A stretch of 64,000 nucleotides of DNA from Candidatus Altiarchaeota archaeon (GTDB lineage Archaea; Altiarchaeota; Altiarchaeia; IMC4; QMZM01): assembly GCA_034659295.1 (NCBI GenBank), contig JAYEGX010000055.1, positions 9,726 through 73,725 of the forward strand, given 5' to 3'. Positions within the stretch are counted from its first letter, which is position 1; every line of letters starts with the position of its first letter. This document shows, one piece after another, positions 6,436-55,100 of this stretch. The notes under the pieces were generated by a model. That model had not been told where the DNA came from and did no database searches. It saw only the letters and a list, made by a program, of their open reading frames with translations. The position numbers were made by a program, and so were the translations under genes.

Positions 6436-6460
6436 ATAGAAAACGTTTATTTAGATTAAC

Positions 6461-36444: not shown

Positions 36445-36984
36445 TTACTGGCATAGAACTGCGAGGGGGTATTCAGCAGCAGGACACCAGTGCATCCTCA
36501 GCCAGCATTTCCCCTCATCGTCAAAAAAGCTAACTCCCCATTGTAGCCTGTTCGTATTCTGATCAACTATCATAAAACCGGTTGTTTGAATTTCATGATA
36601 GCCTGCTTGATATTGAGGTAGGGCTCCTACACTAGCAGTTTTGGTCATTTTATATGCACAATTAATAGGTACCATTCCATCGGGACACTCGGCTGCTATA
36701 TACCACTCTTTACCGCCCACAAATGGAACCGGGTTAATAACAAAATTTTCTCCTCCGTTGTCGTGTAGAACAGGACTGTCGAATAAATCCGACGTATATT
36801 CCACTGAATCCTTGCCGTAATACCATTCCACGCCCCCACAACTGAAATCTCCGTCATCGATAGCGCCCTGCAAACTCTTCTCCTGGCTGTTGATGTCTAT
36901 CTTAATATCATAACCTGAGTGCCACATATTCTTCGCAGGATCCCAGGAGCTGGCAACAACAAAACCAAGCCCGAAGAAAACCAA
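36445..36984 (-). CDS. Hypothetical secreted Cys-containing protein. TTG start in the track; possibly 5'-extended to an ATG at 37012 via a homopolymer frameshift.
   Basis: 179 aa with a hydrophobic N-terminus VFFGLGFVVASSW. An ATG at 37012..37010 is out of frame by one base, across C6 (36995-37000) and A6 (36983-36988) tracts. Confidence 0.4.
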   Translation of the reverse strand: MVFFGLGFVVASSWDPAKNMWHSGYDIKIDINSQEKSLQGAIDDGDFSCGGVEWYYGKDSVEYTSDLFDSPVLHDNGGENFVINPVPFVGGKEWYIAAECPDGMVPINCAYKMTKTASVGALPQYQAGYHEIQTTGFMIVDQNTNRLQWGVSFFDDEGKCWLRMHWCPAAEYPLAVLCQ

Positions 36985-37254
36985 AAAACAACAACCCCCC
37001 TGGAAAAACCATCACCCACCATTTTTAATCAATAAAGATAGGGTAGATAATCCATTAGATAGGTTATGATTTGAGGGAAGAATCCGCCTCCAAAATCCAG
37101 ACATACTGGCAGATAAAATAGACCCGATTAACATCAGAGAAAAAAAAGCCACAAAAAGTGTACACTGATTTTACCTCACCCCCCCTAAACAATTAATCTT
37201 CAGGGGGTTATTCTTTAAAACAAGGAGGTGATTTTTTTTATATTCCCCATTCGT

Positions 37255-40164
37255 CTAAAAAACAAAATATATCCAACAATCTTGCAGCCAAGTATCTCCG
37301 ATATTCTTGACCCAGACATACCAACAGCCGTCAGTTACCTGTTCAGGATAATTTATCGGCATAATCTTTACTAAATGTCGTGTCATATAATAATAAACAC
37401 CATCATGAACGCCTTTATATGCCCATGGATCTGCAGCAATGACTTTCTGGATACTGCTATAATCACTCACTGTGGGAGGGCCGATCTCCCAGTTTTGACC
37501 TGCATATTTGGCCATCACGTGCAGGTCGCCATGGCTGTAATGTGATTGCACCGCTGCCACGACTGTCAAAGTCGGATTGCTGGAACCAGAATCTGCCCGA
37601 AACTTAAAAAGTTTTATTTCTCCCGGCCTAAATCTAAAATCTCTGTAAGTGTCGCCCTTTATCAGCGTAATGCCCGGCCTTTCCCCGTCGCCATCACCGT
37701 CACCATCCCCGCCGCCGTCGCATTCGGAGAGTGGGGTTGAACAGGAAATGGATATGTGCCCTAAGATCGTGTCCTCCGGGGAATAGAATGCCGCGTACCA
37801 GAGCGATTTCGGGGTGGGTTTTGTAACCTCCAGCATTATTCCCGTAGAACCTGCACTCACACACCGTATGTATGAATCCTCATAACCTGCCGGTTTAGGG
37901 ATCATCCAGCCCCAAACAGTCGGATTACGGCTGATTTGCTGCCAATTAACGCCGTCGAAGCGTGTGTCGCCGACAGAGTTCATATACTCGATTTCTTCCA
38001 CGGTAGGCGGGCTGCCGCGCTTTAAAACAACACACCGGGCTCCGCCCGAATTCGAGTAAGGAGTTCCTATAATCTGTATAGGATGCCCCTCGTCATTGAT
38101 ACAACAGACGAATTTATAATAAACTGGTGTGCCGCCGTCAACATACACATCACTACCACCCGGAACCGTACCACCATCATGGAAATCACCGTCCACCAAA
38201 GGAATCCCGTCATCAGGAATCACTATATCCCCGTCACCATCGCCGTCACCATCGCCGCTACCGGCCTCAACACACTCTCCTGACATCATATTAACCATAC
38301 AGCCGCCAGCAATTCCACACGGGTTCATCGTACAACTCGCTCCACCGTAATCCCCACAACCAGAGGGAGGACTACCCCCACAACTCACACAGTTATTGTG
38401 TTTATTCACGTAACAGATGCCGGGAACACCGCAGATATTATAGATGCAATCCTGATACCCGGAAGACATGGAATAGCTGCTGCACTCCGTGATCAGAGAG
38501 CAATCAATACATGTTGGTGTTGTTGTCACACCCCCAGGAGAACGAAAAGGAAAATACAATATATTAACAATATTAACCACCAAAGCCATCAGGAGCAGGA
38601 CAATAATCACGTACTTGATGGCCCTCTTCGCCTCGCTTCTTTCGTAGGGCCCAAAAGAGACAATCAAGGCAACAGCATGTACGGCGAAAAACACCGCCGC
38701 CAGAATAATTAAGATAGTGGAGAAGAGACCCAGTAACCCGCCGACATTCTGATAGCCTTCGCATCCGCTGACACAGACCGCAGTACATTGCTCCCTGGCG
38801 CTTTCATCCTCGATGCCAGCACACCAGTCAGAGCAACAGGATTCACAATCCTCCCTGCAGTTCGCATACCCCCCGCATAACTGAGCCCAAATCTCCCTAC
38901 AGGTGGCACAGCACCTCGCCTCAACCCCCCCCTCCGAAGACATACCACCCCTTCCCACAGCCTGCGCAGTAATCTCCCGGCCATGACAGATCCCAGTGCA
39001 CGAGCACTTATATAGGAGGATTTCATCCAGCGGAGATGTTGTCGTAGTCACGAATTCCTCCACAACAACAGTCACAGTATCTCTATCAGTTTTACCTGCA
39101 TCAGAGCCTGAGCCGGTGAAAGTCAAGGATACGATAAATGTTCCCTCAGTGGCGTACTGGTGGCTGGTGCTTTCCCCTGAACCAGAGCTGCCGTCCCCGA
39201 AATCCCACCCGAAGCTGCCTACACCAATAGATTCGCTGGCATCGAAGTAGGCTGTGCCCCCAACACCTATGGTGACTGATTTTTTGTTCACATTTGTTGA
39301 GGTCTCACCCACGTAGGCTATCGCCTTGAAGTCAACGACCTCAACAGTCACAGTATCTATATCATTTTTACCTGCATCATCTCCTTCGCCGGTGAAAGTC
39401 AATGTCACAGTAAAGGTTCCCTCAGCAGGGAAGGTATGTGTTGGAGCGACTTCTGTATTGTCTACCGAACCGTCGCCGTCGAAATCCCACCCAAATCTGC
39501 CTTCACCACGAGAGTCGCTGGCATCGAAGTACACCACATCACCTATGTCAACGGTAACGCTCTTATAGTTAACATCTGATGCCGTCTTACCCACCTTGGC
39601 CACGGCATTAAACTCCGGCTCTTCAGGCTTCACCTCCTCTAAACGACAGTCGCAGTTACAGCCGTTTTCACAGCCGATGCTTACGTGGATGTGGGAGTGA
39701 TATGTTTTAATCCTGCCGCCCCCGCAATAGGCAAGCGCATCCCTTATCTCCTGCAGACATACCCTGTTTTTAAAATCCACTGCATAGGATTTACCTACAC
39801 ACGCCCTACCACCGTAGTGGCATGAATGTTCAACATGAGCGCATGGAGGCCGGCTCCATGAGCCGGGAACACACCTATCCATCCCCGCTGAATCAGAGAC
39901 CGAGCTTATAACCTTCGCCCTCTCAGGGAGGTAGCCCTCCATGCAGTCCAGAAGCGTTACAAGCGCAGGGGACATGTCACTGCATTGAGCGCCTGGGTTG
40001 CGTATATCATACTCACAAAGGATATACCCATGGCATGATGCTCCTGGCTGAGGGGAGCCGCTGCATTGAGCACTTGCAGAGTTGGAGAAAACGAAAAAGG
40101 ATATAATCATTAAACAGCTTATTCCCTTCAGGCCACGCCCAGCTCCCTTAGTTTCTGAATCCAT
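37255..40164 (-). CDS. Large surface protein: signal peptide, N-terminal domain with a peptidase M15 (VanY/Hedgehog-type) zinc motif, two PKD domains, Cys-rich regions, a mid-protein TM hairpin, (GD)n linkers, and a C-terminal beta-rich domain
   Basis: 969 aa. M15-like SCHYGGRACVGKSYAVDF (SxHxxGxAxD) with a downstream YHSHIHVS. PKD repeats ...YFDASDSRGEGRFGWDFDGDG... and ...YFDASESIGVGSFGWDFGDGS.... TM hairpin LLGLFSTILIILAAVFFAVHAVALIVSF / YVIIVLLLMALVVNIVNILYF. Linkers GDGDGDGDGD. Confidence 0.6.
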   Translation of the reverse strand: MDSETKGAGRGLKGISCLMIISFFVFSNSASAQCSGSPQPGASCHGYILCEYDIRNPGAQCSDMSPALVTLLDCMEGYLPERAKVISSVSDSAGMDRCVPGSWSRPPCAHVEHSCHYGGRACVGKSYAVDFKNRVCLQEIRDALAYCGGGRIKTYHSHIHVSIGCENGCNCDCRLEEVKPEEPEFNAVAKVGKTASDVNYKSVTVDIGDVVYFDASDSRGEGRFGWDFDGDGSVDNTEVAPTHTFPAEGTFTVTLTFTGEGDDAGKNDIDTVTVEVVDFKAIAYVGETSTNVNKKSVTIGVGGTAYFDASESIGVGSFGWDFGDGSSGSGESTSHQYATEGTFIVSLTFTGSGSDAGKTDRDTVTVVVEEFVTTTTSPLDEILLYKCSCTGICHGREITAQAVGRGGMSSEGGVEARCCATCREIWAQLCGGYANCREDCESCCSDWCAGIEDESAREQCTAVCVSGCEGYQNVGGLLGLFSTILIILAAVFFAVHAVALIVSFGPYERSEAKRAIKYVIIVLLLMALVVNIVNILYFPFRSPGGVTTTPTCIDCSLITECSSYSMSSGYQDCIYNICGVPGICYVNKHNNCVSCGGSPPSGCGDYGGASCTMNPCGIAGGCMVNMMSGECVEAGSGDGDGDGDGDIVIPDDGIPLVDGDFHDGGTVPGGSDVYVDGGTPVYYKFVCCINDEGHPIQIIGTPYSNSGGARCVVLKRGSPPTVEEIEYMNSVGDTRFDGVNWQQISRNPTVWGWMIPKPAGYEDSYIRCVSAGSTGIMLEVTKPTPKSLWYAAFYSPEDTILGHISISCSTPLSECDGGGDGDGDGDGERPGITLIKGDTYRDFRFRPGEIKLFKFRADSGSSNPTLTVVAAVQSHYSHGDLHVMAKYAGQNWEIGPPTVSDYSSIQKVIAADPWAYKGVHDGVYYYMTRHLVKIMPINYPEQVTDGCWYVWVKNIGDTWLQDCWIYFVF

Positions 40165-40652
40165 AGTTGAGTATCTCCTGGGACTATGAGGACGTCTTTC
40201 TCTTCATTGTTTTCTATGTAGTTAACCCGGATGTATTCCCTGAAAAGCTTGCTCTCTGTTTTCACTTCCTGCACCGAATTAAGCGGTATATCCAGGACCA
40301 CATCAAGCTCCTTGCCGATAATTCTCTTGTTGGTTAAGTACAGGCTCATGTACTTATGGGAGCGCCTCCCCAGCAGGCGACCCCTCTTGGAGGGAAACAA
40401 GACATAACCCTGGTCTATGCTCTCCAGGATTATTGACTCATCCTCGTCGGTTCTGGGGGGAATAACCTCCTTCTCAAAAGACATGAAAATCAGGTAGCTG
40501 CCGAACACCGCCAACAGCATGGCCAGAAAGCCTACCATGAACGGGAAACCAGTCCACAGGTTGTATACCAGAGCCAGAATCAACGCTATAACAAAACCCG
40601 CTATTACGCCCGTATATCCCAGAGCCCTTAAATCAGATTTATCCAATCTCAT
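40128..40652 (-). CDS. Membrane protein: 2 TM helices plus a cytoplasmic PH-like (bPH/YdbS-type) domain
   Basis: 174 aa. Two N-terminal helices, then a domain with a bacterial PH-like pattern (LYLTNKRIIG). Confidence 0.4.
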   Translation of the reverse strand: MRLDKSDLRALGYTGVIAGFVIALILALVYNLWTGFPFMVGFLAMLLAVFGSYLIFMSFEKEVIPPRTDEDESIILESIDQGYVLFPSKRGRLLGRRSHKYMSLYLTNKRIIGKELDVVLDIPLNSVQEVKTESKLFREYIRVNYIENNEEKDVLIVPGDTQLWIQKLRELGVA

Positions 40653-40703
40653 ATTGCCACCCTTATTTATTAGATTATTTAGGTTAAAGGGAAATAAAGG
40701 ATT

Positions 40704-42380
40704 TCACCATATAGGACCCTTCGGGGGGCCAACCGGTTTAGGTGGTGTGATCCTATCCTTCTTGTATGTCTCAAATTCAGCCTCCTCTGCCATGTCAGCA
40801 ACGCCTGAAAGCCACGGGACCTCAAGGGCTGAGAAAGCCACTATCATCATAGCCAGCCAGTCCATCAAGCCCATAGCAAACAAAGGTGCTATAATAATCA
40901 GGAGATAACAGGCCAGACCCATGCCCACCCTGAATGCCTGCTCCCCCACCAACCCGGTGGGCATGTGCACAACAGCTAATGTGATGCCCACAATAATCAA
41001 TGCCTCAATGAATTGGGTGGCAATCCACCAACCTGTCTGGTAGAGCATTTCATTACCCAGCCTCCTGGTTAAATGCAGGGAGTTCAGGAATATGGTGAAC
41101 GGGAAGAGTATCGCCCACAATATGACCATGAAGTACCTTAACACCAGCACGGTTATGGCAAAAAGATAGAAGATTATCTGGAACAGGGCTATGAATAAGC
41201 CAGTGAAGAAGGCGATTGCCATTATGCTCAGGTACTCGTAATTCAGGGAATTAATGCACTCGGTGCACATGAACTTTTTCGCATCCTCAATATCCACTAA
41301 AGTCATTGTGTAGGCAGACAGTATGTGGGTGAAGTCTAAGAGCAGCTGCATTATGGGTATGGTCAGGATGATAAGTCCTATGGAGATAATCATCCTCAGG
41401 AGTGTTGATTTAGCCCGCGCTCTTCCCAGAGGTGAGGCTGACATGAACAATAGATAAAAGACTGTTACAGCAATGCCGAGTATGTAGAAGGGTTCGAGCA
41501 GGTGTATGAAGAAATCCAGTGTGTGGACAACAACCGGCTCGGTAAGGTTAGGTTTAAGCAGGATGAAGTATTCTATGTCATTGCATATGTCTTCCATCTT
41601 GTCCAGGACACCTATTTTTATGCCAAGGTATCCTACAAGCAATCGTCCTGAAATCTTCTTGAACTCACCCCTGAATGATTTAAAAATAGGGGTTTTAACA
41701 CTCCAGTCAGATAGTCTTAATCGAAAACTCTCCATTATACCTGAGTGGTGTATTCCTGCTGTGCTTGCGACGATACTCTGCGCCCAGAACCCTACCTCCT
41801 CGGTCGTGTGGCTTGAGGTCATTACACCCTCAATCCATGTATCGGCTGTGGTGGAGCAGTTCTCGATGTCCAAGCCCTCCCTCTCACCCTTAACAGAGGC
41901 GTAGATGTGGTGGCCGTTGTTCATGGTGAAATCAAAGTATTTGGCGGCTATATCAGAGAGGTTGTCGTTGTCTATGACTCCAGGGGTGTCGGTGTCGAAT
42001 CTACAGCCCCTCCCCTCCACCAGCGGGCTTTCCGTAAGCTCCGTATACCCCACGTCCAGACCCTTCTGGACTACAATCATAGCCCTCTCTTTCGTCTCAG
42101 TGCATACCTCCTCTACGGTGGCTTTAAGGGCATTGCAGGTGCCCCTCTGCATCAGCTCGGCGTTTTCAATGAATCGCACACAGCGACTGTCTATTCTACA
42201 TTCTCTTATGTATTCCCTGTATTCAGATGTCCCTGGTAGAAGCCTGCAGGTGCTTTGCTCCACCCCCGCAAGTTCTTCATTCCCAGGAGACGATTCCCCC
42301 AACTCTAAGGCGCTCACGCTAGCTGAAAAAAATAAGGCGAACAACGCCAGCAACACCATCCCTTTTTTTCCGTAATCCAT
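40704..42380 (-). CDS. Member 6 of the paralogous polytopic membrane family, with a large (~270-aa) extracellular N-terminal domain
   Basis: Likely start MDYGKKGMVLLALFALFFSASVSA (signal). The family core follows: LLEPFYILGIAVTVFYLLFMSASPLGRARAKSTLLRMIISIGLIILTIP...LYQTGWWIATQF. Confidence 0.55.
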   Translation of the reverse strand: MDYGKKGMVLLALFALFFSASVSALELGESSPGNEELAGVEQSTCRLLPGTSEYREYIRECRIDSRCVRFIENAELMQRGTCNALKATVEEVCTETKERAMIVVQKGLDVGYTELTESPLVEGRGCRFDTDTPGVIDNDNLSDIAAKYFDFTMNNGHHIYASVKGEREGLDIENCSTTADTWIEGVMTSSHTTEEVGFWAQSIVASTAGIHHSGIMESFRLRLSDWSVKTPIFKSFRGEFKKISGRLLVGYLGIKIGVLDKMEDICNDIEYFILLKPNLTEPVVVHTLDFFIHLLEPFYILGIAVTVFYLLFMSASPLGRARAKSTLLRMIISIGLIILTIPIMQLLLDFTHILSAYTMTLVDIEDAKKFMCTECINSLNYEYLSIMAIAFFTGLFIALFQIIFYLFAITVLVLRYFMVILWAILFPFTIFLNSLHLTRRLGNEMLYQTGWWIATQFIEALIIVGITLAVVHMPTGLVGEQAFRVGMGLACYLLIIIAPLFAMGLMDWLAMMIVAFSALEVPWLSGVADMAEEAEFETYKKDRITPPKPVGPPKGPIW

Positions 42381-42384
42381 TCTC

Positions 42385-43461
42385 TCAGTAATCCTCTGGT
42401 GGCTTGATGACAACCTCCTCCTCCTCAAAGGGTTTCCTCTCAATTGTTGTTTCACTCACTACCACAGCACCGCTGCTTAGTGGAGCGGCCTGGACTATCT
42501 CGAACATGAAAATCGACAGCCCCATCCAGTTCATAACACCCAGTATCATGAAGGGAACAGCAAACATAAAGATAAGTGATGTAGCGTATATGAACTCCAG
42601 CGGGAGATTAGGTGATATAACAGGGAGAGTCGCTACTGTCACGGAGACAATGATTAATCCCACAGCCCAGCCCAGCTGCAAAAAAATCCAGATGATAGTC
42701 TGCTCGAACATCATCTTCCCCGCGTTTCTGGTTAAGTCCCATGAATAAAAGAATATGGTTACCGGCAGGAGAACAGCCATCAACCCCGCCATGATGTATC
42801 GTATGAACAGTATCAGATACAGGGCCATTAATAGCACAGTATCCAGGAGGAATATCTCTATACCACCATACCTGTGTATGAGGGTTATTTTCACGAAGGT
42901 ATCAAAGAGATCCTGAGCAGCCGCCCGGAGCGAACCCAAGGCTATTGTTATATCAGCAAGGTTCATAATCTGAGATGTCAGGCTCCCGGAAACATAATAA
43001 AGCAACTCGACGAGTAAAGGGGATACAGATATGAGAACCAACCCGATAATCAGCTTACCAAACCATTTCTTAGCCCTTGCCCTGTTCAGCGGAGACTGTG
43101 AGACAAAGATTATATAGAACCCCGTTAACATTATGGCCGCAATATAAAAGGGCTGCATCAGGTTAATGAAGAAACCCATGAAATGCTTTATGCTCCACAT
43201 AGGTGGGTTGGCTTTTATCAGGGAGGGCATATTATCGAATACCGATAAATAAAAGTAATGGATAAGGTTAGCCGAGTATATAATAATCCCCTTCCTGGCC
43301 ATTTTCGCTGCTTCACTGGTTAACATATTGAGAACTCCGCTTAATCCTATCGAGTAACCAGTGTATCCTTTGGTTTTAGCAGCGGAGACTGGGGGGATAG
43401 AGGCTAACACTAAAAGGAGTAATACAACACCTACCACCAGATTTTTTGTTCTTGTTTTCAT
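42385..43461 (-). CDS. Paralogous polytopic membrane protein (family member 5), with a VirB6/TrbL-like topology
   Basis: Signal peptide plus 6 or more TM helices. Family motif LMQPFYIAAIMLTGFYIIFVSQSPLNRARAKKWFGKLIIGLVLISVSP...MFEQTIIWIFLQL. Confidence 0.55.
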   Translation of the reverse strand: MKTRTKNLVVGVVLLLLVLASIPPVSAAKTKGYTGYSIGLSGVLNMLTSEAAKMARKGIIIYSANLIHYFYLSVFDNMPSLIKANPPMWSIKHFMGFFINLMQPFYIAAIMLTGFYIIFVSQSPLNRARAKKWFGKLIIGLVLISVSPLLVELLYYVSGSLTSQIMNLADITIALGSLRAAAQDLFDTFVKITLIHRYGGIEIFLLDTVLLMALYLILFIRYIMAGLMAVLLPVTIFFYSWDLTRNAGKMMFEQTIIWIFLQLGWAVGLIIVSVTVATLPVISPNLPLEFIYATSLIFMFAVPFMILGVMNWMGLSIFMFEIVQAAPLSSGAVVVSETTIERKPFEEEEVVIKPPEDY

Positions 43462-44684
43462 GGTAAAAAGTCACGAAGGTGCTGTGCCCATATCAGGGGG
43501 AATATTATCAGCATCGCGTATATTGTAGCCCCAAGCACGAAATCCACGATATTGACTGTTGCAGGCATGGCCTCATAGAAGTCATGAAGCATGATTTCTG
43601 CCCCGGCAACCCCCACCACAGACCCTATTGCTCCACCGAGGAGTAAACCCCACCAATTAAGAACCTTTCCCGTCTGCAGCCCAATCTCCGCCGTAGATGG
43701 GCCTATAGCCAACACACTCATGAGGTCATACATGCCCCGGAGGTTTGTGAACGATATCTCGGCGTTCAAGACAACATGCTCTTCTATTGTGGTGCCGATA
43801 CCGACAAATACAACAATGATTAAGGCAATGAAGACCTGGAGGAATATCCACACAATCAACTGCTCCAGCAGTTTCTTGCCTATGCCCTTAAACCATGGGA
43901 GGCTGTAGAACAAAACCCCCAGGGGGAATAATACCATTAAGAGCGTGATAAGTATGTGCCTCAAACCCAGCACTATGTACGGGATGAAGGACATAGCAAA
44001 AAGCAGGGTGAGATAAGGGAGTCCAAGATCCGTATACGGTACCGCCGTCAAGGCATAAACCCAGAACAGGTTTTCGACTGCACCTCCCAGAGCAGCCTTT
44101 ACCTCCTCACCGCTTACCAGACTGAAAACAGACTCAGTCATCTCCTCAGACAACCCCAATAGCAGGTTTATTAGGGGTATGGATAGGGAGATAACAACCA
44201 TCGAAACCAGCAACCTGAGCAGGATATCCTTTGCCTTAGACCTTGATGAGGGCGATACGGGCATGAAGAGCAGATAGAATCCCACAGTTAATATAACCAG
44301 CACATAAACTGGTTGCAGTATCCTTATGAAAAACGCTATGAGCTCAAATATTAAGGCGTCGTGTGGTGAGGGATTGGACACTACCGCCACATGATAGTTG
44401 TTGGGGAATGACATGGCATACTTGGGCATGAATCCTCCATGGATTATTTTAACAACAAGAATCATTCTAAGAAAGTACCCCATGCCTTCACTCAAGAAAG
44501 TGCCGGTTTCTATTAATCCCTCGCTTTTCCAAAAGCTTTTTATATTACCCCATTCCCTTGATAAAAAGCCCTGTGAGAAAACGTTCGTGGAGAAGACTAT
44601 GATTAACAACAGAACCAATACTACCTGGTAATTCCTTTCCCATTCAATTTTCATTTTTTTTATGGTAAAAAGTTTCTGAACCAT
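43458..44684 (-). CDS. Paralogous polytopic membrane protein (family member 4)
   Basis: ILQPVYVLVILTVGFYLLFMPVSPSSRSKAKDILLRLLVSMVVISLSIP...LLEQLIVWIFLQVF. Confidence 0.55.
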   Translation of the reverse strand: MVQKLFTIKKMKIEWERNYQVVLVLLLIIVFSTNVFSQGFLSREWGNIKSFWKSEGLIETGTFLSEGMGYFLRMILVVKIIHGGFMPKYAMSFPNNYHVAVVSNPSPHDALIFELIAFFIRILQPVYVLVILTVGFYLLFMPVSPSSRSKAKDILLRLLVSMVVISLSIPLINLLLGLSEEMTESVFSLVSGEEVKAALGGAVENLFWVYALTAVPYTDLGLPYLTLLFAMSFIPYIVLGLRHILITLLMVLFPLGVLFYSLPWFKGIGKKLLEQLIVWIFLQVFIALIIVVFVGIGTTIEEHVVLNAEISFTNLRGMYDLMSVLAIGPSTAEIGLQTGKVLNWWGLLLGGAIGSVVGVAGAEIMLHDFYEAMPATVNIVDFVLGATIYAMLIIFPLIWAQHLRDFLP

Positions 44685-45622
44685 ATGAGCATCAACGCTG
44701 GAGTAAGCACGAGACTGAACACACCAACCAACAAAATCAAATCAAACCCGAAATTCCATAAAAATCCCGCAACCGAAAACTGTATATACATAAATCCCGG
44801 CTCTTTGGATATCATTGCTATTGCAGCAACAGCAACTACCACAGCATTAAATATCTGCAGGGAAGACCAGAGTATTGTCTGCTCCAACATGTTCCTGCCT
44901 ATGTTCTTGGTGAAATCGAAGGAGTACAGGAATATGGATAACGGGAGGAGTATAATCCACAAGAGAACAGCCAGATACCTTAATATAAGCATCAGATACG
45001 TCCCCCAGACAAGAAAGAAAAGAGGTAGGAAGGCGTAATACCCCAGCTCTACATTTATGAGACAAGACCACATATGCAGCTTTTTTAAACCCTCTATCAC
45101 CTTATTCAGGGTGTATGTGTAGTATGCGATATCAGCCTGTCCCAGAACAGATGAGGTGATGTTCTCTGTCATATAAAGGGTTATGGTCATTATTTGAGGA
45201 GCTAGTGATATCAAAGCCAGTGAAATAAACAGCTTCACCAGCATGGATTTCGCTTTATTCCTTCCTGAGGGGGTTGACGAAACAAGTATAAGATAAAACC
45301 CTGTTATCGATATGGCAAGCACATAGAAGGGTTGTAGAAGCGAAACAAAAAATCTTATTAAATCCAGCACTATAGGATCCTGGGGTGAGGGATTCATCAA
45401 AATAAAATCCCCCAGGTTGGCTGATAGCGCATCAAGCCCCCGGGTAGCATAGCTGGAAGCGACCCAGTAGTAAAACCATCTCTTTGCTAGATACGCAATA
45501 GTCATAGCTGAACCTTTGGCAGTTGCCTTCCCTGGTACATCTTTTGCACAAACAAAAACAACGATAGAGGATATTATCAATAACGCTGCTATGACCAGGA
45601 TGTATTTTCTCTCTTTTTTCAT
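44660..45622 (-). CDS. Paralogous polytopic membrane protein (family member 3)
   Basis: LLQPFYVLAISITGFYLILVSSTPSGRNKAKSMLVKLFISLALISLAP...MLEQTILWSSLQIF. Confidence 0.55.
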   Translation of the reverse strand: MKKERKYILVIAALLIISSIVVFVCAKDVPGKATAKGSAMTIAYLAKRWFYYWVASSYATRGLDALSANLGDFILMNPSPQDPIVLDLIRFFVSLLQPFYVLAISITGFYLILVSSTPSGRNKAKSMLVKLFISLALISLAPQIMTITLYMTENITSSVLGQADIAYYTYTLNKVIEGLKKLHMWSCLINVELGYYAFLPLFFLVWGTYLMLILRYLAVLLWIILLPLSIFLYSFDFTKNIGRNMLEQTILWSSLQIFNAVVVAVAAIAMISKEPGFMYIQFSVAGFLWNFGFDLILLVGVFSLVLTPALMLIWFRNFLP

Positions 45623-45624
45623 GG

Positions 45625-46824
45625 TTACGGAGGTAATAGTTTCTGGAAAAAGGTGAACATTAATATAGGCCCCAAGAGCAACATGAACATACTAGTCCAG
45701 GTGAATATGCTAATGAAGAAGGGCTCTCCCGGGATATCTAATGCATCCATAGCACCTCCTATGAGGGGTATATCGCTCTTATGGATTCCTATACCGTATG
45801 ATTCATACATGCTGGTTGGGACGATTGATATTCCCACAGCGATTACAACAACCGTGATGCCATAGAAAACCTGCAGGCTGCTCCATAAAAGAGTCTGCTC
45901 CAACATAGTCTTCCCGAATCCCCGGGTGAACTCAAAAGATGAGAAAAAGATGGTGAAAGGCAACAGGAGACCCCACAAAAAAACCATAAAGTATCTGAGG
46001 GTTAACATACCATGTATTCCTATAAGTATAAGCATCAACAACAACACGAAGGGTGTGGTCCACACAATCTCAATCTCCACCAGCTCGATTGCATGCAAAG
46101 TTTTATGTAGTTGCTTAAGGTTTTTACTGGATTTTAGGTTACCAAAAAATCCGGTTAACGTGCCAACACCACCATAAAAAGCATTGGGGGCGTTTGCCAA
46201 CATAACCAGGTTCCTTATGACACATATCATCGAGGAAAACTCTGATGCTGCTATCGAAACATAAGCCTTAGGGTTTAACTCATCCCCTATAATCTCACCG
46301 GTAGAGTTCTCCGTCAACGATAAAAGCACCCCCACCAGCTCTGAAGAGAATGAAACCAGAACCATGCTAATAATAAGCTTAGCCAGCAACGACTTAGCCC
46401 TAGCCCGACCCAGAGGGGAGCCGGGTATGAATATTATATAAAACCCGGCCATTATTATAGCCAGTATATACACAGGATAAAGCAAACCCACGAAATACCT
46501 GAGAAGGTTAAGAGCTGCCGGGTTCTTGAGGTCGGGATTCAACAAGATGTATTTAGCTAGATTATTCTCTATGTCTTCTGCGATATTAGTCATCGAAGAC
46601 CATACCAAACGCATGTAAAGCACCCTCTGAGCTAGAGCAATATTTTCACCACTAGTAAAAAGGCCGAGAACTCCTTTCGCCAGAGGGTTTTGCTCTACCT
46701 TGCCGAAAATGTTAGTGGGGTGTATAAGAGAACTCTTCCCAGAAGAAACTGCAAACGGTATGATATTCAGGACTAATACTGAAACAATCAAGACCGCAAG
46801 CAGTTTATTCCCCCCTGAATCCAT
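45625..46824 (-). CDS. Paralogous polytopic membrane protein (family member 2)
   Basis: LLYPVYILAIIMAGFYIIFIPGSPLGRARAKSLLAKLIISMVLVSFSS...MLEQTLLWSSLQVF. Confidence 0.55.
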   Translation of the reverse strand: MDSGGNKLLAVLIVSVLVLNIIPFAVSSGKSSLIHPTNIFGKVEQNPLAKGVLGLFTSGENIALAQRVLYMRLVWSSMTNIAEDIENNLAKYILLNPDLKNPAALNLLRYFVGLLYPVYILAIIMAGFYIIFIPGSPLGRARAKSLLAKLIISMVLVSFSSELVGVLLSLTENSTGEIIGDELNPKAYVSIAASEFSSMICVIRNLVMLANAPNAFYGGVGTLTGFFGNLKSSKNLKQLHKTLHAIELVEIEIVWTTPFVLLLMLILIGIHGMLTLRYFMVFLWGLLLPFTIFFSSFEFTRGFGKTMLEQTLLWSSLQVFYGITVVVIAVGISIVPTSMYESYGIGIHKSDIPLIGGAMDALDIPGEPFFISIFTWTSMFMLLLGPILMFTFFQKLLPP

Positions 46825-49800
46825 TTATCTCTTACCTCTTAAATCCTCCAACCAGCTTTCAAGCTCCATCCTGCCCACCCCAAGGAATTTATATGAGAAC
46901 ACAGCCACAACCAGAATCGCCAACAAAACAAGAATCTCAGGGGAAAGCAGCGGCGTGTAAATCTCCACAACATTAAACCGCACAACCTTATTCAGGGAGC
47001 GTCCTGTTGGGTCAACATCACCATGGTGTTTAATCTCCAGAGAGAATGTTTTATGGGCATTTAATGTGAACTCAGCGTATCCATACTCTCCAGTAACCAC
47101 AAAATATTCACCGTCTTCCTCGCTTAAACCATTAGGGCTTAGACTGGAGAGGTCAACATCCTTGCTCCACACATCAACCCTCTTACCTGACTCACCCCGG
47201 TTTTTATCAATATTATATAGCCATAACTTAACAGTCACCTCTGAGCCAGGCGATAACACCACACCCTCCGGCTCAACCACATAAAACAAATCAACAGCAT
47301 CCCTGATTTTGAACTCATCAGCATCGCTGAGATTAAGCTCCCTGTGCTCATAGAAGGTATCTATAACTAGTTTACCGTCCTCAAACTCATCCCGGGGTAT
47401 TATGTCATAATCCTCCTCCCCTGAATAGAGGTGCCTGTAGGGCTCATAGTTTGTTCTAAAGTAGAGCGTGTAGTAATGTCCTCCAGGAAACACAGCATCT
47501 GAGACGTTGTGCTTGAAGTCGACAACAATTAATTTATTAAACCCGCCCATGGATTTAGCAGCCTCCAGACCATACCAGCTCATATCCTCAATATTCTTAT
47601 TGTCGAAGATAACAAAATCATACCCCTTGCCCACATTCACGTTGTCCACGATAGATTTGTGGTTAACAGCCTCTATCTTAATGCTTTTCATCTGGGGTCG
47701 GACATCATAGCATACCTTCTCCCAATGAACCTCACACGCCTCTTTTGAGATTGTATAGACTTCATTTCCACCGTCATAGTATTCTACTGTGAGTTCTATC
47801 TCAATGCTCTTTTTGTCGTCTATCCCAAACTCTAGACACAGCTGGTTATCTGGATCAGAGGTAGCACCCTTAGGTATATATTGTATCACACCAGAACCCT
47901 GCGGGAGTTTCAGTGCGTATCCGTTTCGTCCCATAAGCCTTTCATCAACGGTTGGCATGCCGCTAACAGCCTCCCACGGACCCAGCCCGGTATCGAATCC
48001 CATCTCGAAGTCGCCGTTGACTATAACGCTGCCCTCATCCTCATGGAATGTTCTGTTGGATGTGCACGGGTTATCATATCTCTTATCCGGGGCACAGACG
48101 CAGTCATCTTTCTCAATCAAGCGGTCACCGTAGCAGGCCATATACAATGCATCCGATCTGAATTCATCAAAACAGTAGACCCGATTGTGCTCAAACTCGC
48201 ATTCAAGGAGACCTATCTCGTTAAGGTATCTGGTGCAGAGGTTGTCTATGGCCTGCTTGTTGTCCTGGATTGAGCCATCCACACAAATCCTTTCCACGAC
48301 AGGGTCATCAGAGTAATGGGTACATAGGAGTTCCTCGATGTCATCCCTGTATTTTAGGGGGTTCGTGTTAATACACAGTGGCCGCATTATGTCCTCCGGA
48401 TCGCATTCACATACTGGGGGAGGGTCACAAAATGTCTGACACTGCTCCGGGAATTCGTATTTCTCGAACTCATAACCGTAGCGGCTGCCTAAACCATAAG
48501 AGATGCTGCCTCCAGAGCTTGATTTCTTTTTTATTGTTGAATGCGAGATGGGGCTTATAATCTCACGGTAGTCTGCATCAGAGTCTCCTACAAAAAGGGT
48601 CATCCCCCTGAACAAATCCGGCTGTATGGTGAAGTTGATGAACCCGTAGGTGGTTATGAAATCCCCCTCCTTGTATCTTGTAGCGTCCAAGACCAGATGA
48701 TGGTATATGGGCGAATCCTTCCAGCCGCTTGCGCAGCCGTTGTATATCCAGGGCACCTTCTCCCAGTTATACACATGATATTCACTCTCTATCGTGCTTG
48801 TCTCCTGCTCATGATACCAGGACAGGATTTCCTCCCTCCACTGGTGCCAGCACTGATTACAGATAGCACAGTAAGGACAGCAGCAGGTGCAGGGACATAT
48901 AAGCATAATCTTCTCGCTAACTCCGCCGCACCAATCACAACAATACCCAACATTCTTATCAGCTAGAAGGAACTGGTAGTAGGGAGTAATTGCATGACAG
49001 TCACCACAGGGGCAGTCGCATTCCGGGCAGGTTTGGCACTCGTATCTGTCGCAGGCTGTATAAAACCGGTCCTCCCTGATGCCTGTTAGATAATCCTGTT
49101 TAGCTGTGAACTTTAGCTTCATGTATGAACTATTCACTACCTCGGATCTAAAAACATCAGAGTCCATGGTAAGCCTGGACCACCTCCCCAACTTGGACTT
49201 ATAGTATCTAACCGCCGTAATGTCCGAGCAACCGTCCGGGTCTTTACACTCGTAGGGCTCTGAAGCTATCCAGTAGGCGCAAGTCAGTTGGAAGGGTATG
49301 TTGGCTGTGTCGATTATCCTAAATGTACCGCCTTTAGACATCCAGATGTTTTCGCTTATGTTATAGATCTCCATCCGCTGCGGTTCCCCAAAAGGCAGCA
49401 TGCTACCAGAAGATAACCCAACCTTGAATTTTGTGCTGGCTTTAGCCCCACCCTCCAGTATATACTTGGTGAGACATAACGGCCCAGGAGCCTCCTGCTT
49501 CTGCTCTATGATGGTGTAGGGGTGGGCTTCATATTGCTGCGAACCCCCAATACAACTTGAACAATCCGTGCAAACAGACAACAGCTTCCACTTACAGTAT
49601 ATGTTATCCGAGCCCCAGATGCGCTCGTACCATGGAACCTCAAACTTCTCGAAGCCTGCCTGCCCATAGCCCACATCATTGCACTCCTCCGGGGGGCAGT
49701 CCCTCATAAGCTGGTATTGTGTGATAACCTCACATGGTATAGGATTCATCTGGTCAGGACCACCCCAGCAGTCGCCGTGTGGAGGTACTAACTGATTAGG

Positions 49801-51474
49801 CAGGCATTCAGGCGCCTCTTCTTCATCAGACTTGCATTCATCGTCCACGCCACGATAAAGCTTGCAGGGGCCTGTCTGCAGGGTACCGGGAGGATCATCC
49901 TCTGAATCGAAACCAGAGCATAAATCAAAGGGTGGAGCCTCACCATCACAATGCTCGTATTGTGTGGCATCATCGTCCATGGGATCAAAGGGATCGCATT
50001 CCTCTAACAGCTCACATGGGGTCCCATGCCGGCAGCTCCAGTCACATGCATCCGTCCTGTCCTGCCCGGAACCCACATACCTATCTGTATCAACCCCCTC
50101 CGCATAACCCCACGCGCCGCATTTAACTGGACCAGTCACCGCTATCAGGGGAGAGAGCATGAAAAACCTGACCCAGAGACCATGCCACGCCTTCGTTATA
50201 TCCTCCAGAGGAGGTCCCATAATGGTTCCAAGTATCACCTCCCCATCAGGCCCCTTAAACGTAACAGCGCTCTTGTTCGGCATCTCGTTGATGTACACAA
50301 AGACATCATTCCAGTTTTTCTGGTCCCGGATGTATAACTCATCGACTGAAAGCAGGTTAGCATTCTCTGTGAAAGAATACATCATATACGGCAGCTCATA
50401 GCAGTAGCTGTCATCCCTTAAGCCTGTTTTATAGCAGTAGAGTCTCTCGGACTCATCCATACCCCCAAGAGACCGGATGTAGTGCTTAGCCCAGGCCTCA
50501 AAAAATGTGACATAAACCTCATCCGCCCCAAGGAAGGTGTGTATGTTGTAGAAGGTTGCTGGTTCATCAGGCAGAGAATCATCACCTGATAAATCCGCTA
50601 AAGAAGCCGCTCCATCCATACTATGGTAGTGCTCGACAAGCGCCTTATACAATAAATCATTAACCAAAGTCCACGTATGGTTTGAGGCACCCCCATACGC
50701 CTCCAATATAAAACAACGTTTTTCAGCGTCCATAATCCAGTACTTCACCTGGTTCTCTCCGGTGAAATCCTCATAAGGCTGGAATTCACAGACCAGGGAT
50801 TCCTCATTCCACACGCATTTCTTGGTTTTAGAGCAAGCGTATTCTGTAGCGTATTCACTGCACCTGTAGGATGGCTTAGAGGCTGCGACCAAAAACCGGG
50901 AGGGGTTTATCACAAGCTCCATCTCCTGATCTTCACTTTCACCCCGCCCCAGATCACCTGTCCTGGTGCATCTGGCGATGGGGGTGGAGGAGTAGCCGAA
51001 TGCGTAGGAATCCTCCCGCTCGTATTGTCTCAGAATCCTGTCCTGGCTGGAAATGAAGGCATAGTCTTTTTCATCAACACTGCTGCCTTCATCCAACACC
51101 TCACATTCATCTAAATCCAACAACAGGGTCTTAAAGCAGTAATATCTGTTTCCGCCTTCTGTTTTCACATACACTTCAGGTTTTATGGTAATATTCGCCT
51201 CAGGGGTTCCATCGTTTGTTACATTAATGCTTCCGTTGTGATACAGGTATGCGTCCGCTATACCAGCGAATCCCAGGTTCTCATAATCCGGTGGTTCACC
51301 ATCTGATAGAGGCAGGTAGGGCACCTGATGACAGTTTGTATCCCCCCAATCACAGTCCTCAGCCTCGCTATAGGGCCCATAGCTTATGCCGCAGAGATCC
51401 TCCTCCTGGGCGGTTACAACGCTGAAAGAAAACAGGAACAATAAAGCTGCAGCATACAGGGGGAAGGATTTCAT
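46825..51474 (-). CDS. Giant (1549 aa) Cys-rich secreted protein with a C-terminal TM anchor. Adhesin or structural surface protein; first gene of the minus-strand cluster.
   Basis: Signal peptide MKSFPLYAAALLFLFSFSVVTAQ. Cys-rich throughout (e.g. CPCTCCCPYCAICNQCW, CDWCGG), with many N-x-S/T sites. C-terminal LLSPEILVLLAILVVAVFSYKF plus a charged tail. Its stop abuts the start of the next gene (46824/46825). Confidence 0.6.
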   Translation of the reverse strand: MKSFPLYAAALLFLFSFSVVTAQEEDLCGISYGPYSEAEDCDWGDTNCHQVPYLPLSDGEPPDYENLGFAGIADAYLYHNGSINVTNDGTPEANITIKPEVYVKTEGGNRYYCFKTLLLDLDECEVLDEGSSVDEKDYAFISSQDRILRQYEREDSYAFGYSSTPIARCTRTGDLGRGESEDQEMELVINPSRFLVAASKPSYRCSEYATEYACSKTKKCVWNEESLVCEFQPYEDFTGENQVKYWIMDAEKRCFILEAYGGASNHTWTLVNDLLYKALVEHYHSMDGAASLADLSGDDSLPDEPATFYNIHTFLGADEVYVTFFEAWAKHYIRSLGGMDESERLYCYKTGLRDDSYCYELPYMMYSFTENANLLSVDELYIRDQKNWNDVFVYINEMPNKSAVTFKGPDGEVILGTIMGPPLEDITKAWHGLWVRFFMLSPLIAVTGPVKCGAWGYAEGVDTDRYVGSGQDRTDACDWSCRHGTPCELLEECDPFDPMDDDATQYEHCDGEAPPFDLCSGFDSEDDPPGTLQTGPCKLYRGVDDECKSDEEEAPECLPNQLVPPHGDCWGGPDQMNPIPCEVITQYQLMRDCPPEECNDVGYGQAGFEKFEVPWYERIWGSDNIYCKWKLLSVCTDCSSCIGGSQQYEAHPYTIIEQKQEAPGPLCLTKYILEGGAKASTKFKVGLSSGSMLPFGEPQRMEIYNISENIWMSKGGTFRIIDTANIPFQLTCAYWIASEPYECKDPDGCSDITAVRYYKSKLGRWSRLTMDSDVFRSEVVNSSYMKLKFTAKQDYLTGIREDRFYTACDRYECQTCPECDCPCGDCHAITPYYQFLLADKNVGYCCDWCGGVSEKIMLICPCTCCCPYCAICNQCWHQWREEILSWYHEQETSTIESEYHVYNWEKVPWIYNGCASGWKDSPIYHHLVLDATRYKEGDFITTYGFINFTIQPDLFRGMTLFVGDSDADYREIISPISHSTIKKKSSSGGSISYGLGSRYGYEFEKYEFPEQCQTFCDPPPVCECDPEDIMRPLCINTNPLKYRDDIEELLCTHYSDDPVVERICVDGSIQDNKQAIDNLCTRYLNEIGLLECEFEHNRVYCFDEFRSDALYMACYGDRLIEKDDCVCAPDKRYDNPCTSNRTFHEDEGSVIVNGDFEMGFDTGLGPWEAVSGMPTVDERLMGRNGYALKLPQGSGVIQYIPKGATSDPDNQLCLEFGIDDKKSIEIELTVEYYDGGNEVYTISKEACEVHWEKVCYDVRPQMKSIKIEAVNHKSIVDNVNVGKGYDFVIFDNKNIEDMSWYGLEAAKSMGGFNKLIVVDFKHNVSDAVFPGGHYYTLYFRTNYEPYRHLYSGEEDYDIIPRDEFEDGKLVIDTFYEHRELNLSDADEFKIRDAVDLFYVVEPEGVVLSPGSEVTVKLWLYNIDKNRGESGKRVDVWSKDVDLSSLSPNGLSEEDGEYFVVTGEYGYAEFTLNAHKTFSLEIKHHGDVDPTGRSLNKVVRFNVVEIYTPLLSPEILVLLAILVVAVFSYKFLGVGRMELESWLEDLRGKR

Positions 51475-52140: not shown

Positions 52141-55100
52141 ATGAGAAGGATTGCCTTACTGTCTATGATGGGAGTGATAGGGATTCTGCTGATGTTATTG
52201 GTTGCGGCAGCATCAGCAACAGTAGTTGTCTTAGATCCAGGTCACGGAGGCAAAGACCCTGGTGCTGTAGGTCCAACAGGATTACAAGAGAAAGATGTTG
52301 CTCTCCAAGTTGCGTTAAAGACTAAATCACTACTAGAAGCATCTGGGATAACTGTTATTTTGACCCGATCTACGGATACATATGTTAGTTTAAGTGAGAG
52401 GGTGAATATAGCTAATAATGCCAATGCGGATTTATTTGTATCTATTCATTGCAATGCTTTTACGGATCCATCAGCACATGGGACCGAGACATGGTATAGC
52501 TCAAGTGCTCCAGACCCGGATAAAGCAAAAAAACTTGCAGAATTCGTGCAATCTGAACTCTTATCTCAGCTAGGATTACGTGATCGAGGAGTCAAAAAGA
52601 ATGGATTTTATGTTATAAAGTATACAGATATGCCCTCTTGCCTAGCAGAATTGGCATTCATTTCGAATCCCAACGAAGAGGTACTTTTAGCAGATCCAAG
52701 CTTCCAGCAGAAAGCAGCACGAGGGATATATGAGGGAATTATGGATTATTTAGGGATATTTCCGCCTTGTTCTCTAGACTCCGTCTCAATACAACCAGAT
52801 TGCTCTGGAGGCTCCTCCCCCAAATGTGAAAAGGGTGAGCGAATCAAGATAGATGTAACATATAGCGGAGATTGCCCATCCACCGCGTATATACAGATTG
52901 GCGCCAAAAGCGGAGACGGTAAATGCGTCATAGAGCATACTGGCGGAAACATGGTGGGAATGGATATATCCTGCACTTCTTCTCCATGTACAGGCTACTG
53001 GACGATTCCAGAGATACCACCAAACTGCCTATGCAAGAATATGAATGCAGCAGGAGCTGGGATATATAAAGACAGCATCTCTCCAGAAAATTATCTCGAC
53101 GGCATAACAGCCACAGGGTCGTTTGAATTCTGGTGCCCTAAAGCCCCCGTCGCAGACGCAAGAGTCGGTAGAACAGCAGACGAAAAACTAAAAGAAATCA
53201 CTGTCAAAGTCGGCGACACTGTCTACTTCGACGGAGAAACATATTCCGTTGGGAAAATAACGGAATACAGCTGGGACTTTACCGGGGATGGAATATACGA
53301 CTGGAGCTCAACAACAACCGGAAAAACCACCCACCAATACAATGAAAAGGGGTCCTACATCGCCGAACTAAAAATCACCAACGACAAAGGCGAAACAGAC
53401 ACAGACATTGTTATCATCCACGTAGTAGAAGAAGAGGAAGAACCTACCTTCCTCTCAGATATCTGCCCCGCTCCGCCGAACGATTACTTGATGAGGATGA
53501 TATGTCTGGTTGTGCCCATCCTTTGTGTGATAATGAACATCCTGGTGCCAGTAATGTTTGTCCTAGTTGCCTTAGGGGGTTTGATGCAGCTGAGCACCGA
53601 CGGGGGGATAAAAAACAAGGGTAAACAGGTGATATTCAACACCATCCTTGGGGTGGTTATTATCTCAGCATTCATAGGTTTATCGGATTTATTGATAGAG
53701 GAAGTCAACATCATGGAGGTGTGTTTACTCGGGGAGATTCCGCCGCCTGCTTTAAGAGCGTATATTGATGCTGACCCGACCTCCGGACCCCCACCACTTG
53801 AGGTTTCCTTAACCGGGAGCGCATCCGGGGGAACCGCACCCTACACCTACAGCTGGGACTGTGGTGGAGGAACCCCAGAGGTGACAGGCTCAAACACCGC
53901 AACATGCACATACACAAGCGAAGGAACATACACTGTAACATTAACCGTAACAGACGCGGAAGATGGAACAGCCACAGCCACCCAGACAATAACCGTTAAA
54001 GTAGCTGAGTTAAAAGCGTATATTGATGCTGAACCGACCTCCGGACCCCCACCACTTGAGGTTTCCTTAACCGGGAGCGCATCCGGGGGAACCGCACCCT
54101 ACACCTACAGCTGGGACTGTGGAGGAGGAACCCTAGCAGTCACAGGCTCAAACACCGCAACATGCACATACACAAGCGAAGGAACATACACTGTAACATT
54201 AACCGTAACAGACGCGGAAGATGGAACAGCAACAGCCACCCAGACAATAACCGTTGGAGTAGTAGTTGAGTGCGAGGATCCGTCATGTGATGAGATCTAC
54301 GGTTACATAGACGGCGCCATCGCAGGCTTAGGGGTGGACGACAGTTTGGTGAGGGCTGTGATAAAAAAAGAAAGTGATTATCACCAGTGTTGCTTTGGCC
54401 CCTACATTGGGGTTACATGTGAGGAAGGTGAGGTCCTTAAATCACATGCTGGGGCTTTGGGTTTGATGCAGCTGATGCCGGGGACAGCCAGCGAGTTAGG
54501 CGTTGATCCTGAGGACCCGCAGCAGAATGTTGAGGGAGGCGTTAGGTACCTGAACACGCAGCTAAATGAATTTGGCAGTGTGGAGCTGGCTCTCGCCGCC
54601 TATAACATGGGGCCCGGGTATGTGGCGTGTTCGCTGGGTTATGATTGGCCTGTCTGTGCACAATATCCAGGATATGATCTATGTGGTGCCGGAGTATGTA
54701 AGGCTCCAGCTGAACGGAATTGGGCTTGTCTTAGTACATGCTCTATCCCTGCTGAAACATTAGGATACGTTAATGGCATAATGGGGATTATAGGAACATC
54801 TGCAGCGGATTGCAGTGATCTGCCTACGCCTACAGCATCCTTCACCGCAAACCCTCTAACAGGACCTGCACCCCTCACAGTCGACGTGGATGCTTCCGCT
54901 TCAACAGGAGCAACAACCTACACTTGGGGCTGGGAGGACGGAACCCCGGGTGGTTCAGGAGTAACTGCATCACACGAATACACAACCGACGGAACCTACA
55001 CCATAACCCTGACCGTATCAGACGGCACATACACAGACACAGACACTGAAACAATAATTGTCGGTTCGTTATCAGTGTCCATTGAATCACCACCTGATGG

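Follow-up and report, generated by a model that had tools for sequence, protein, structure and literature searches.

A Cys-rich, probably LAS-type domain joined to a pilin-like hairpin in an Altiarchaeota operon: a candidate surface-tethered cutter of bacterial cell walls

Introduction

What is the Cys-rich domain that precedes two PKD domains and a pilin-like membrane hairpin in one archaeal protein, and what, if anything, might it cut? The question is raised by a 64,000-nucleotide stretch of the Candidatus Altiarchaeota archaeon assembly GCA_034659295.1 (contig JAYEGX010000055.1, positions 9,726 to 73,725 of the forward strand), hereafter the window, whose own numbering is used throughout. 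The gene at 37255..40164 (-) encodes a 969-amino acid (aa) protein, NCBI MEA1924903.1, annotated 'PKD domain-containing protein'; its contig, 82,415 bp long, belongs to a metagenome-assembled genome. A first-pass annotation of the window had described the protein in just these terms, and the open reading frame (ORF) does have this length and two PKD domains; it had further proposed that the N-terminus is a peptidase of the M15 or LAS superfamily, perhaps of the VanY kind, that would complete a toolkit for dismantling peptidoglycan.

Here we argue that the N-terminal domain is a divergent, previously unannotated, Cys-rich branch of the LAS fold (Hedgehog/DD-peptidase, Pfam clan Peptidase_MD), an assignment for which two independent lines of evidence, a sequence profile and a structure search, give good support but not proof. 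The peptidase proposal stands as far as kinship with LAS proteins and Hedgehog is concerned, and fails for VanY. The first-pass annotation missed a stronger context: the fusion to a pilin-like hairpin, the surrounding array of pilin-like genes, and the link that the family makes between this archaeon and bacteria of the Candidate Phyla Radiation (CPR).

Results

Residues 1-188 of the protein correspond to 39600..40164, and the domain itself to residues 43-177 (39634..40038, -), as outlined by family alignments, the family profile, hhalign, an AlphaFold2 (AF2) model and matches in BFVD. When a profile of 65 family sequences was searched against 177,635 distinct PDB sequences, 24 matches were returned at E<=10. 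The best 23 of these (E 0.0077-0.31), which align over the zinc site, are without exception N-domains of Desert, Sonic or Indian Hedgehog; Hedgehog was already on top with a profile of only 9 sequences. Aligned by hhalign to the N-domain of human Sonic Hedgehog (ShhN), the profile reached 87.6% probability and a score of 39.8, against 11.4±2.2 (maximum 21.8) for 200 shuffles of ShhN (z ~13) and 17.4 for ShhN reversed. The zinc-site half of the ShhN query agrees with the PDB alignments.

The hhalign alignment pairs His110, His116, Asp130, His158 and His160 of the window protein with H135, H141, D148, H181 and H183 of Sonic Hedgehog (Shh), and the position of Tyr155 with E177, at the cost of one 7-residue gap (ACVGKSY) between the His and Asp ligands. 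H141, D148 and H183 are the zinc ligands of Shh (PMC6027127). His110 lies in PPCAH (39835..39837, -); His116, the insertion ACVGKSY and Asp130 lie in SCHYGGRACVGKSYAVDF, residues 114-131 (39772..39825, -); Tyr155, His158 and His160 lie in YHSHIHVS, residues 155-162 (39679..39702, -). Both of the longer strings are where the first-pass annotation had placed them, and its suggestion that YHSHIHVS could supply the third ligand is consistent with the alignment, in which this segment provides the HxH and its H160 falls on Shh H183. The literal SxHxxGxAxD block that it read in the first string is not there: the tenth position is Val123, and the conserved Asp, D130, follows seven residues on, giving H-x13-D.

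With 65 sequences AF2 produced a confident model (predicted local distance difference test, pLDDT, 95.6; predicted template modelling score 0.89) with the element order α-β-loop-β-α-β-β. In model numbering, a helix (24-34) and a strand (43-46) are followed by a long loop carrying H68 and H74, a strand with the Asp (86-89), a helix (92-104) and two strands (109-112 and 117-120) with the HxH. This order, and the placement of the five aligned residues within it, fit what we take to be the Hedgehog/M15 topology. With 9 sequences the model was poor (pLDDT 68, and ~52 in the zinc-site loop), and a Foldseek search of PDB with it is meaningless. When the better model was searched against BFVD, the top match was an unnamed phage protein (probability 0.99, template modelling score, TM, 0.54), and those with names were a 'Peptidase' (0.99), 'Murein endopeptidase K' of phage phiM12 (0.94, TM 0.53), 'Peptidase M15A, C-terminal' (0.87) and M15A peptidases of microviruses. 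These alignments are near full-length, covering 105-142 columns at TM 0.47-0.54.

The domain belongs to a large family for which existing names say little. A word-indexed search found only eight relatives, all of 271-328 aa and all with an N-terminal membrane module (recorded in three as PF18895, T4SS_pilin) followed by the LAS-like domain at the C-terminus. An HMMER scan of 1.84 billion cluster representatives, seeded by an alignment of the window domain and these eight, recovered 630 proteins at E<=1e-3, of which 416 also pass E<=1e-10, a family of at least 630 when counted as clusters at 50% identity. Every member with a source name is a 'hypothetical protein', the window protein with its PKD label apart. 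Across 150 homologues H116, G118 and D130 are invariant, and conservation is 90% or higher for H110, S114, C115, Y117, G119, H158 and H160 as well as for several Cys. H-x13-D, the arrangement of the window protein, is also the dominant spacing of the family (97 of 156 by regular expression), and the H158-I-H160 of the window protein answers to a family pattern (N/D)-H-x-H-V-S. At position -5 from the last His, 120 of 148 relatives (81%) have a Glu (…EGNHVHVS), which the remaining ~19% lack; its counterpart in Shh, E177, is the proposed general base (PMC6027127). The N-terminal domain has 15 Cys in 148 residues and is probably disulfide-rich. We considered the Cys within the insertion (C122, RACVGKS) as a zinc ligand and rejected it, since it is not conserved across 65 sequences while the His and Asp residues are.

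Fusion to a pilin is the usual state of the domain. Among 143 members scanned for partner domains, 111 (78%) carry T4SS_pilin (PF18895 at E<=1e-3), eight carry TrbC, three SLT and two 3D. Outside the archaeal operon described below, every homologue with a readable organism comes from Patescibacteria, with genome matches in Moraniibacteriota, Saccharibacteria, Paceibacterota and Parcubacteria. At three CPR loci (L002, L011 and L012) two or three genes for plain pilins come after the fusion gene. Two of these, L002:6171-9738 and L012:8001-11634, share a longer order of Lactamase_B_3, a small ORF, GyrA, a ~450-aa protein, a large fusion of pilin and LAS-like domain, and two or three plain type IV secretion system (T4SS) pilins; ParA, ParB and RecO are encoded near the fusion locus of L012.

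In the window protein the fusion takes a longer form. A predicted Sec signal peptide occupies residues 1-32 (40069..40164, -), read from sequence with …ISCLMIISFFVFSNSASA before QC; a hydrophobic core and an ASA end ahead of the Q are evident by eye. Behind the LAS-like domain a Pfam scan places the two PKD domains at residues ~190-370 (39055..39597, -), and a Cys-rich stretch separates these from the hairpin region. The hairpin itself, residues 475-538 (38551..38742, -), is a putative two-helix membrane module resembling VirB2 and T4SS pilins: it matches PF18895 at E 0.0019 (18.7 bits, under the cut-off of 26.6) and an NCBIfam pilin-like model at E 4.5e-5 (23 against a cut-off of 40), and hhalign aligns it with the pilin part of the fusion proteins from CPR (81% probability, score 45.6, shuffle maximum 18). 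The order of domains is permuted, LAS-PKD-hairpin in the window protein and hairpin-LAS in CPR. Residues ~540-969 (37255..38550, -) hold a further stretch rich in Cys, a pair of (GD)n linkers and two domains without detectable family. These C-terminal ~430 residues after the hairpin are probably the outward-facing business end of the protein.

Three other assemblies (L010, L013 and L014) keep a LAS-like domain at the equivalent place in the operon, and dN/dS, the ratio of nonsynonymous to synonymous substitution rates, is 0.14-0.36 for the domain among the archaeal copies, indicating purifying selection. Similarity along the gene is uneven. Compared with its L013 orthologue (L013:13152-14621), the window gene is 93% identical in the signal peptide and 89% in the PKD region, and just 66% in the LAS-like domain, which is closer to that of L014 (L014:13121-13909) at 78% identity. 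These mosaic identities point to domain-level recombination between lineages, and the alleles concerned are not alike at the site of the catalytic Glu, where L010 and L014 have Tyr like the window copy and L013 has a canonical DEGNHIHVS. The orthologues are also shorter than 969 aa (489 aa for L013:13152-14621, 384 aa for L010:384-1538 and 262 aa for L014:13121-13909), stopping inside the pilin hairpin or a PKD domain, with separate short ORFs beyond; either the genes are really fragmented or there are frameshifts in the older assemblies. For the domain, homology, residue conservation, domain architecture, synteny and purifying selection are matters of observation, and the fold class is well supported.

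The operon lies on the minus strand at 36445..51474, its genes closely packed, and the 969-aa gene is the last large one in it. Upstream of it, at 40704..46824 (-), are five paralogous genes (583, 358, 408, 320 and 399 aa) that combine a pilin-like hairpin with a multi-transmembrane module; four of the five match the hairpin at 58-87% hhalign probability. Together with the 969-aa gene they bring the operon to six pilin-like paralogs. Their hairpins carry a motif SP(L/S)GRxRAK, followed by a conserved multi-transmembrane module (…LRYxM…LLP…YS.(D/E)FT(R/K)…MLEQT…), and an orthologue of one of them in L013 has a weak match to TrbL_3 (VirB6-like). The set resembles a 'VirB2 array' in the Patescibacteria style, here in an Altiarchaeota chromosome. 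Overlapping the start of the 969-aa gene is a 174-aa membrane protein with a weak bacterial PH match (40128..40652, -), whose synteny is conserved. The operon opens with a gene (46825..51474, -) for a secreted protein of 1549 aa that is very rich in Cys, has a membrane anchor at its C-terminus and matches nothing in Pfam; L013 and L014 encode orthologues, of 1557 and 1598 aa, at the same position.

Divergent from that first gene, at 52141..56031 (+), is the gene for a 1296-aa protein with an Amidase_3 domain, four PKD domains and an SLT domain, so placed in L013 as well. Two peptidoglycan-lytic activities are predicted in its single chain, and a weak Peptidase_M64-like stretch lies at residues 1189-1216. 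The first-pass annotation had counted an amidase and a lytic transglycosylase across a divergent promoter; both domains exist, in one protein, and that promoter belongs to the gene at 46825..51474, the Amidase_3/SLT gene lying ~12 kb from the 969-aa gene and not sharing its own promoter. To speak of a complete toolkit overstates this arrangement, and the phrase holds only loosely at such a distance.

Housekeeping genes of archaeal type (RtcB, NMD3, archease, RFC and IleRS) flank the operon on both sides, and the same operon is present in two other contigs, L013 and L014, again with archaeal neighbours in L014. We rejected a compositional island or recent horizontal gene transfer, as GC content is flat across the locus. 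Given the archaeal flanks and the flat GC, the operon is therefore chromosomal and not a binning artefact. Elsewhere in the window, a 1319-aa protein with GHL15 and GH5 cellulase domains (2476..8608, +) and a 715-aa double esterase (9983..11257, -) suggest that this archaeon degrades extracellular polymers; just downstream of them lies a TnpB-like gene (Cas12f1-like TNB domain).

Discussion

The nearest relatives of the domain are the Hedgehog N-domain (HH_signal, PF01085), its best and sole PDB profile match, and the bacterial 'bacHh' Hh/DD-peptidases (Roelink 2018, PMC6027127). The likeness runs through H-x5-S-x-H-Y-x-G-R … A-V-D … (E)-x3-H-x-H-V/C-S-V, with counterparts for H135, H141, D148, (E177), H181 and H183, and seems to extend to the order of secondary structure around the site. 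Identity is nevertheless only ~33% over 54 aligned columns, and the alignment covers the zinc-site half of ShhN alone, leaving the Ca2+-site region unaligned. The window domain differs further in its 7-residue insertion, in its many extra Cys, in having Tyr for the E177 equivalent and in reaching no Pfam threshold, and the Pfam scan detected no Hint/autoprocessing domain in the 969-aa protein.

On the structural side, the best matches to the AF2 model are M15A/MepK murein endopeptidases and phage M15A endolysins (Peptidase_M15_3, PF08291), in which, as in the window domain, a β-strand with the Asp precedes a helix and a β-hairpin has the His ligand at its end. MepK differs from the family of the window domain in having a single His in place of the HxH and a canonical H-x6-D; sequence similarity is marginal (20% probability), and MepK-type enzymes are soluble, unlike the pilin-tethered proteins described here. 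VanY and VanX (M15B, M15D) belong to the same superfamily, with the same kind of His/Asp/His site and the S-x-H-x-x-G start of the motif. In these two enzymes E-x-x-H provides the catalytic base and the last ligand, whereas the window domain has H-x-H and another spacing and matches no VanY or Peptidase_M15 model. We therefore reject membership of VanY (M15B) for the domain: its tenth motif position is Val123, it has HxH and not ExxH, and no VanY/Peptidase_M15_4 match was found.

For the architecture, the closest comparison is with the wall hydrolases of T4SSs (VirB1; PrgK/TraG with SLT, CHAP or LytM), which are likewise of a wall-lytic type and encoded with, or fused to, T4SS membrane components. 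Here, by contrast, the hydrolase-type domain is covalently joined to the pilin hairpin itself, and its fold is unlike that of VirB1 (SLT) or CHAP. As in the VirB2 pilin arrays of Patescibacteria (PMC12102498), the gene for the domain adjoins divergent VirB2-like pilin genes, in L002, L011, L012 and the window. Our literature searches found no description of a pilin-M15 fusion, and none of Altiarchaeota with a peptidoglycan amidase.

We consider it slightly better than an even chance that, after export, the LAS-like domain is kept outside by the pilin hairpin, uses H116, D130 and H160 to bind zinc, and cleaves a peptide bond in peptidoglycan; the 969-aa protein would then probably be tethered to the cell surface and cut the walls of bacteria. 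In this proposal zinc binding, catalysis and substrate are inferred, and export with its topology is read from sequence, which does not specify the bond that would be cut. A wall-directed role is suggested because SLT and 3D domains co-occur with the domain in family members and T4SSs normally carry a wall hydrolase. In detail, Sec export, predicted from the signal peptide, would bring the protein to the cell surface, where the VirB2-like hairpin would hold the LAS-like domain and the two PKD domains of the same chain. By alignment, a zinc ion would be held by His116, Asp130 and His160, with the catalytic water flanked by His158 and His110 and the family-specific 7-residue loop placed between the His and Asp ligands, and peptide stems or cross-links of peptidoglycan would be cut next to the surface apparatus. 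The archaeal target would be the wall of neighbouring or host bacteria, attacked alongside the Amidase_3/SLT protein; in Patescibacteria, their own or a host's wall might be opened at the pilin apparatus, in a role like that of VirB1.

A number of results weigh against this proposal. At the level of the fold, the N-terminal 189 aa matched nothing in Pfam or NCBIfam at E<=10 or, by phmmer, among all PDB sequences; nine relatives scanned singly against Pfam at E<=10 gave noise only and no M15 or HH model; and Foldseek of the pLDDT-95.6 model against PDB returned no significant match and no LAS protein in the top 50. The E-values of the BFVD matches are no better than 0.012-0.4, and E. coli MepK gives a weak hhalign match (20% probability), with AVDF…HVHVS aligned to AMDF…FVHID. 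The DD-peptidases are defined by H-x6-D and H-x-H on a central antiparallel sheet (PMC6027127), and the first of these spacings is replaced here by H-x13-D. At the level of activity, the window copy has Tyr155 (KTYHSHIHVS) at the position of the Glu, and no Asp or Glu at -3. At the level of the system, neither VirB4 nor any other ATPase was found among the operon genes or among those further ORFs of the window that were scanned, which is all but roughly a dozen of at least 120 aa. Finally, Altiarchaeota are not known as makers of murein, so that the substrate would be the bacterial wall of others; a role at its own wall would be excluded for this archaeon, and the substrate that we name is a guess.

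Taken at their strongest, the points about the fold would mean that the domain is not a LAS protein at all and that it is instead a Cys/His-rich structural metal-binding or disulfide-knot domain, convergent with the Hedgehog zinc motif. Its 15 Cys, the non-canonical H-x13-D, the lack of a match in Pfam and in the PDB Foldseek search, and database E-values that are all marginal, 0.008 at best, would fit such a domain. We think it very improbable nonetheless, given that the profile picks only Hedgehog from 177,635 PDB sequences and the structure search picks M15A peptidases from BFVD, that the ShhN alignment stands z ~13 above its shuffles, and that it is the His and Asp residues, and not the insertion Cys, that are conserved. 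Secondary-structure order and the five aligned residues, which appear to fit the Hedgehog/DD-peptidase topology, argue the same way. Support for the LAS fold, which the first-pass annotation had proposed to seek in profiles and structures, comes from the Hedgehog matches of the profile and from the M15A proteins of BFVD, and not from Pfam, NCBIfam or the PDB Foldseek search.

If the fold is accepted, the replacement of the acidic catalytic residue by Tyr155 leaves the activity of the window copy uncertain: it may be a weaker enzyme, it may use His158 as base, or it may be a binding-only module. The E177A change in Shh is predicted to impair peptidase activity, and it makes ShhN more stable and without self-degrading activity (PMC6027127), and Hedgehog itself was long regarded as a non-catalytic ligand (PMC6027127). 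A pseudo-peptidase that keeps the Hedgehog-like fold and metal site without cutting, as an adhesin or ligand-binding head (for peptidoglycan stems, say, or another surface polymer) on a pilin-anchored PKD stalk, is a reading that we judge rather unlikely. The Tyr of the window, L010 and L014 copies, with no acid at -3, and the ~19% of the family without the Glu are what it would predict, as are the adhesin-like build, in which PKD repeats and (GD)n linkers are joined by large domains of no assigned family at the C-terminus, and the domain-level recombination, which is typical of surface recognition modules. Set against it are the strict retention of the putative zinc ligands and of both flanking His under a dN/dS of 0.14-0.36, the Glu that 81% of the family and the L013 orthologue keep, and the occurrence elsewhere of lytic domains, SLT and 3D, as fusion partners. 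Moreover, some LAS enzymes reportedly use the first His of the HxH and not an acid as catalytic residue (Bochtler et al. 2004, Protein Sci 13:854).

An active zinc peptidase could also have a substrate other than peptidoglycan, maturing the surface proteins of its own cell (the pilin-like paralogs or the 1549-aa Cys-rich protein) or cleaving another archaeal envelope polymer. The host is an archaeon by its RtcB, NMD3, archease, RFC and archaeal IleRS, from a group not known for murein; the gene is embedded among operon membrane proteins that might need processing; and ShhN is reported to have a self-directed ('cannibalistic') peptidase activity (PMC6027127). We find this decidedly improbable in view of the family members fused to SLT or 3D wall-lytic domains, of an Amidase_3 and SLT protein at the same locus, domains without known non-murein substrate, and of the bulk of the family being in peptidoglycan-containing Patescibacteria. 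Characterised enzymes of this fold from bacteria and phages, besides, are not known to act on anything other than peptidoglycan peptides. A zinc peptidase directed at bacterial peptidoglycan is thus the reading that we carry forward.

Conclusions

The domain is related to the known Hedgehog/M15A zinc peptidases and would work as they do. What appears to be new, as judged from sequence and model, is a Cys-rich family with a loop inserted in the zinc motif, typically fused to VirB2-like pilins and in permuted order in an archaeal array. A family of at least 630 clusters, for which neither Pfam nor NCBIfam has a model, gains a testable proposed function as a zinc peptidase of the Hedgehog/DD-peptidase fold, and as a distant prokaryotic relative of Hedgehog it may interest those who study how the Hedgehog zinc site evolved.

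A wall hydrolase such as VirB1 or PrgK is normally part of a T4SS, and most Patescibacteria with VirB2 arrays are without a recognisable VirB1 (PMC12102498). The fusion of the domain to the pilin hairpin could explain how such Patescibacteria handle the peptidoglycan around their pilin arrays (PMC12102498). In the Altiarchaeota chromosome, the presence of the domain beside an array of pilin-like genes and an amidase/SLT gene points to wall degradation by an archaeon against bacteria, and the same setting points to gene flow between CPR bacteria and DPANN-like archaea. A broader idea, which we put forward as a doubtful one, is that ultra-small symbionts of both domains of life share a surface apparatus, in which divergent VirB2-like pilin arrays are headed or tailed by a pilin-tethered Hedgehog-like peptidase, and which Patescibacteria and, after inter-domain transfer, Altiarchaeota use to breach the peptidoglycan of bacteria to which they attach or on which they feed. 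If this were true, the LAS-like family would be the 'missing VirB1' of Patescibacterial pilin arrays, and the archaeon would be armed against bacterial walls with three bond specificities, those of an amidase, a transglycosylase and a peptidase.

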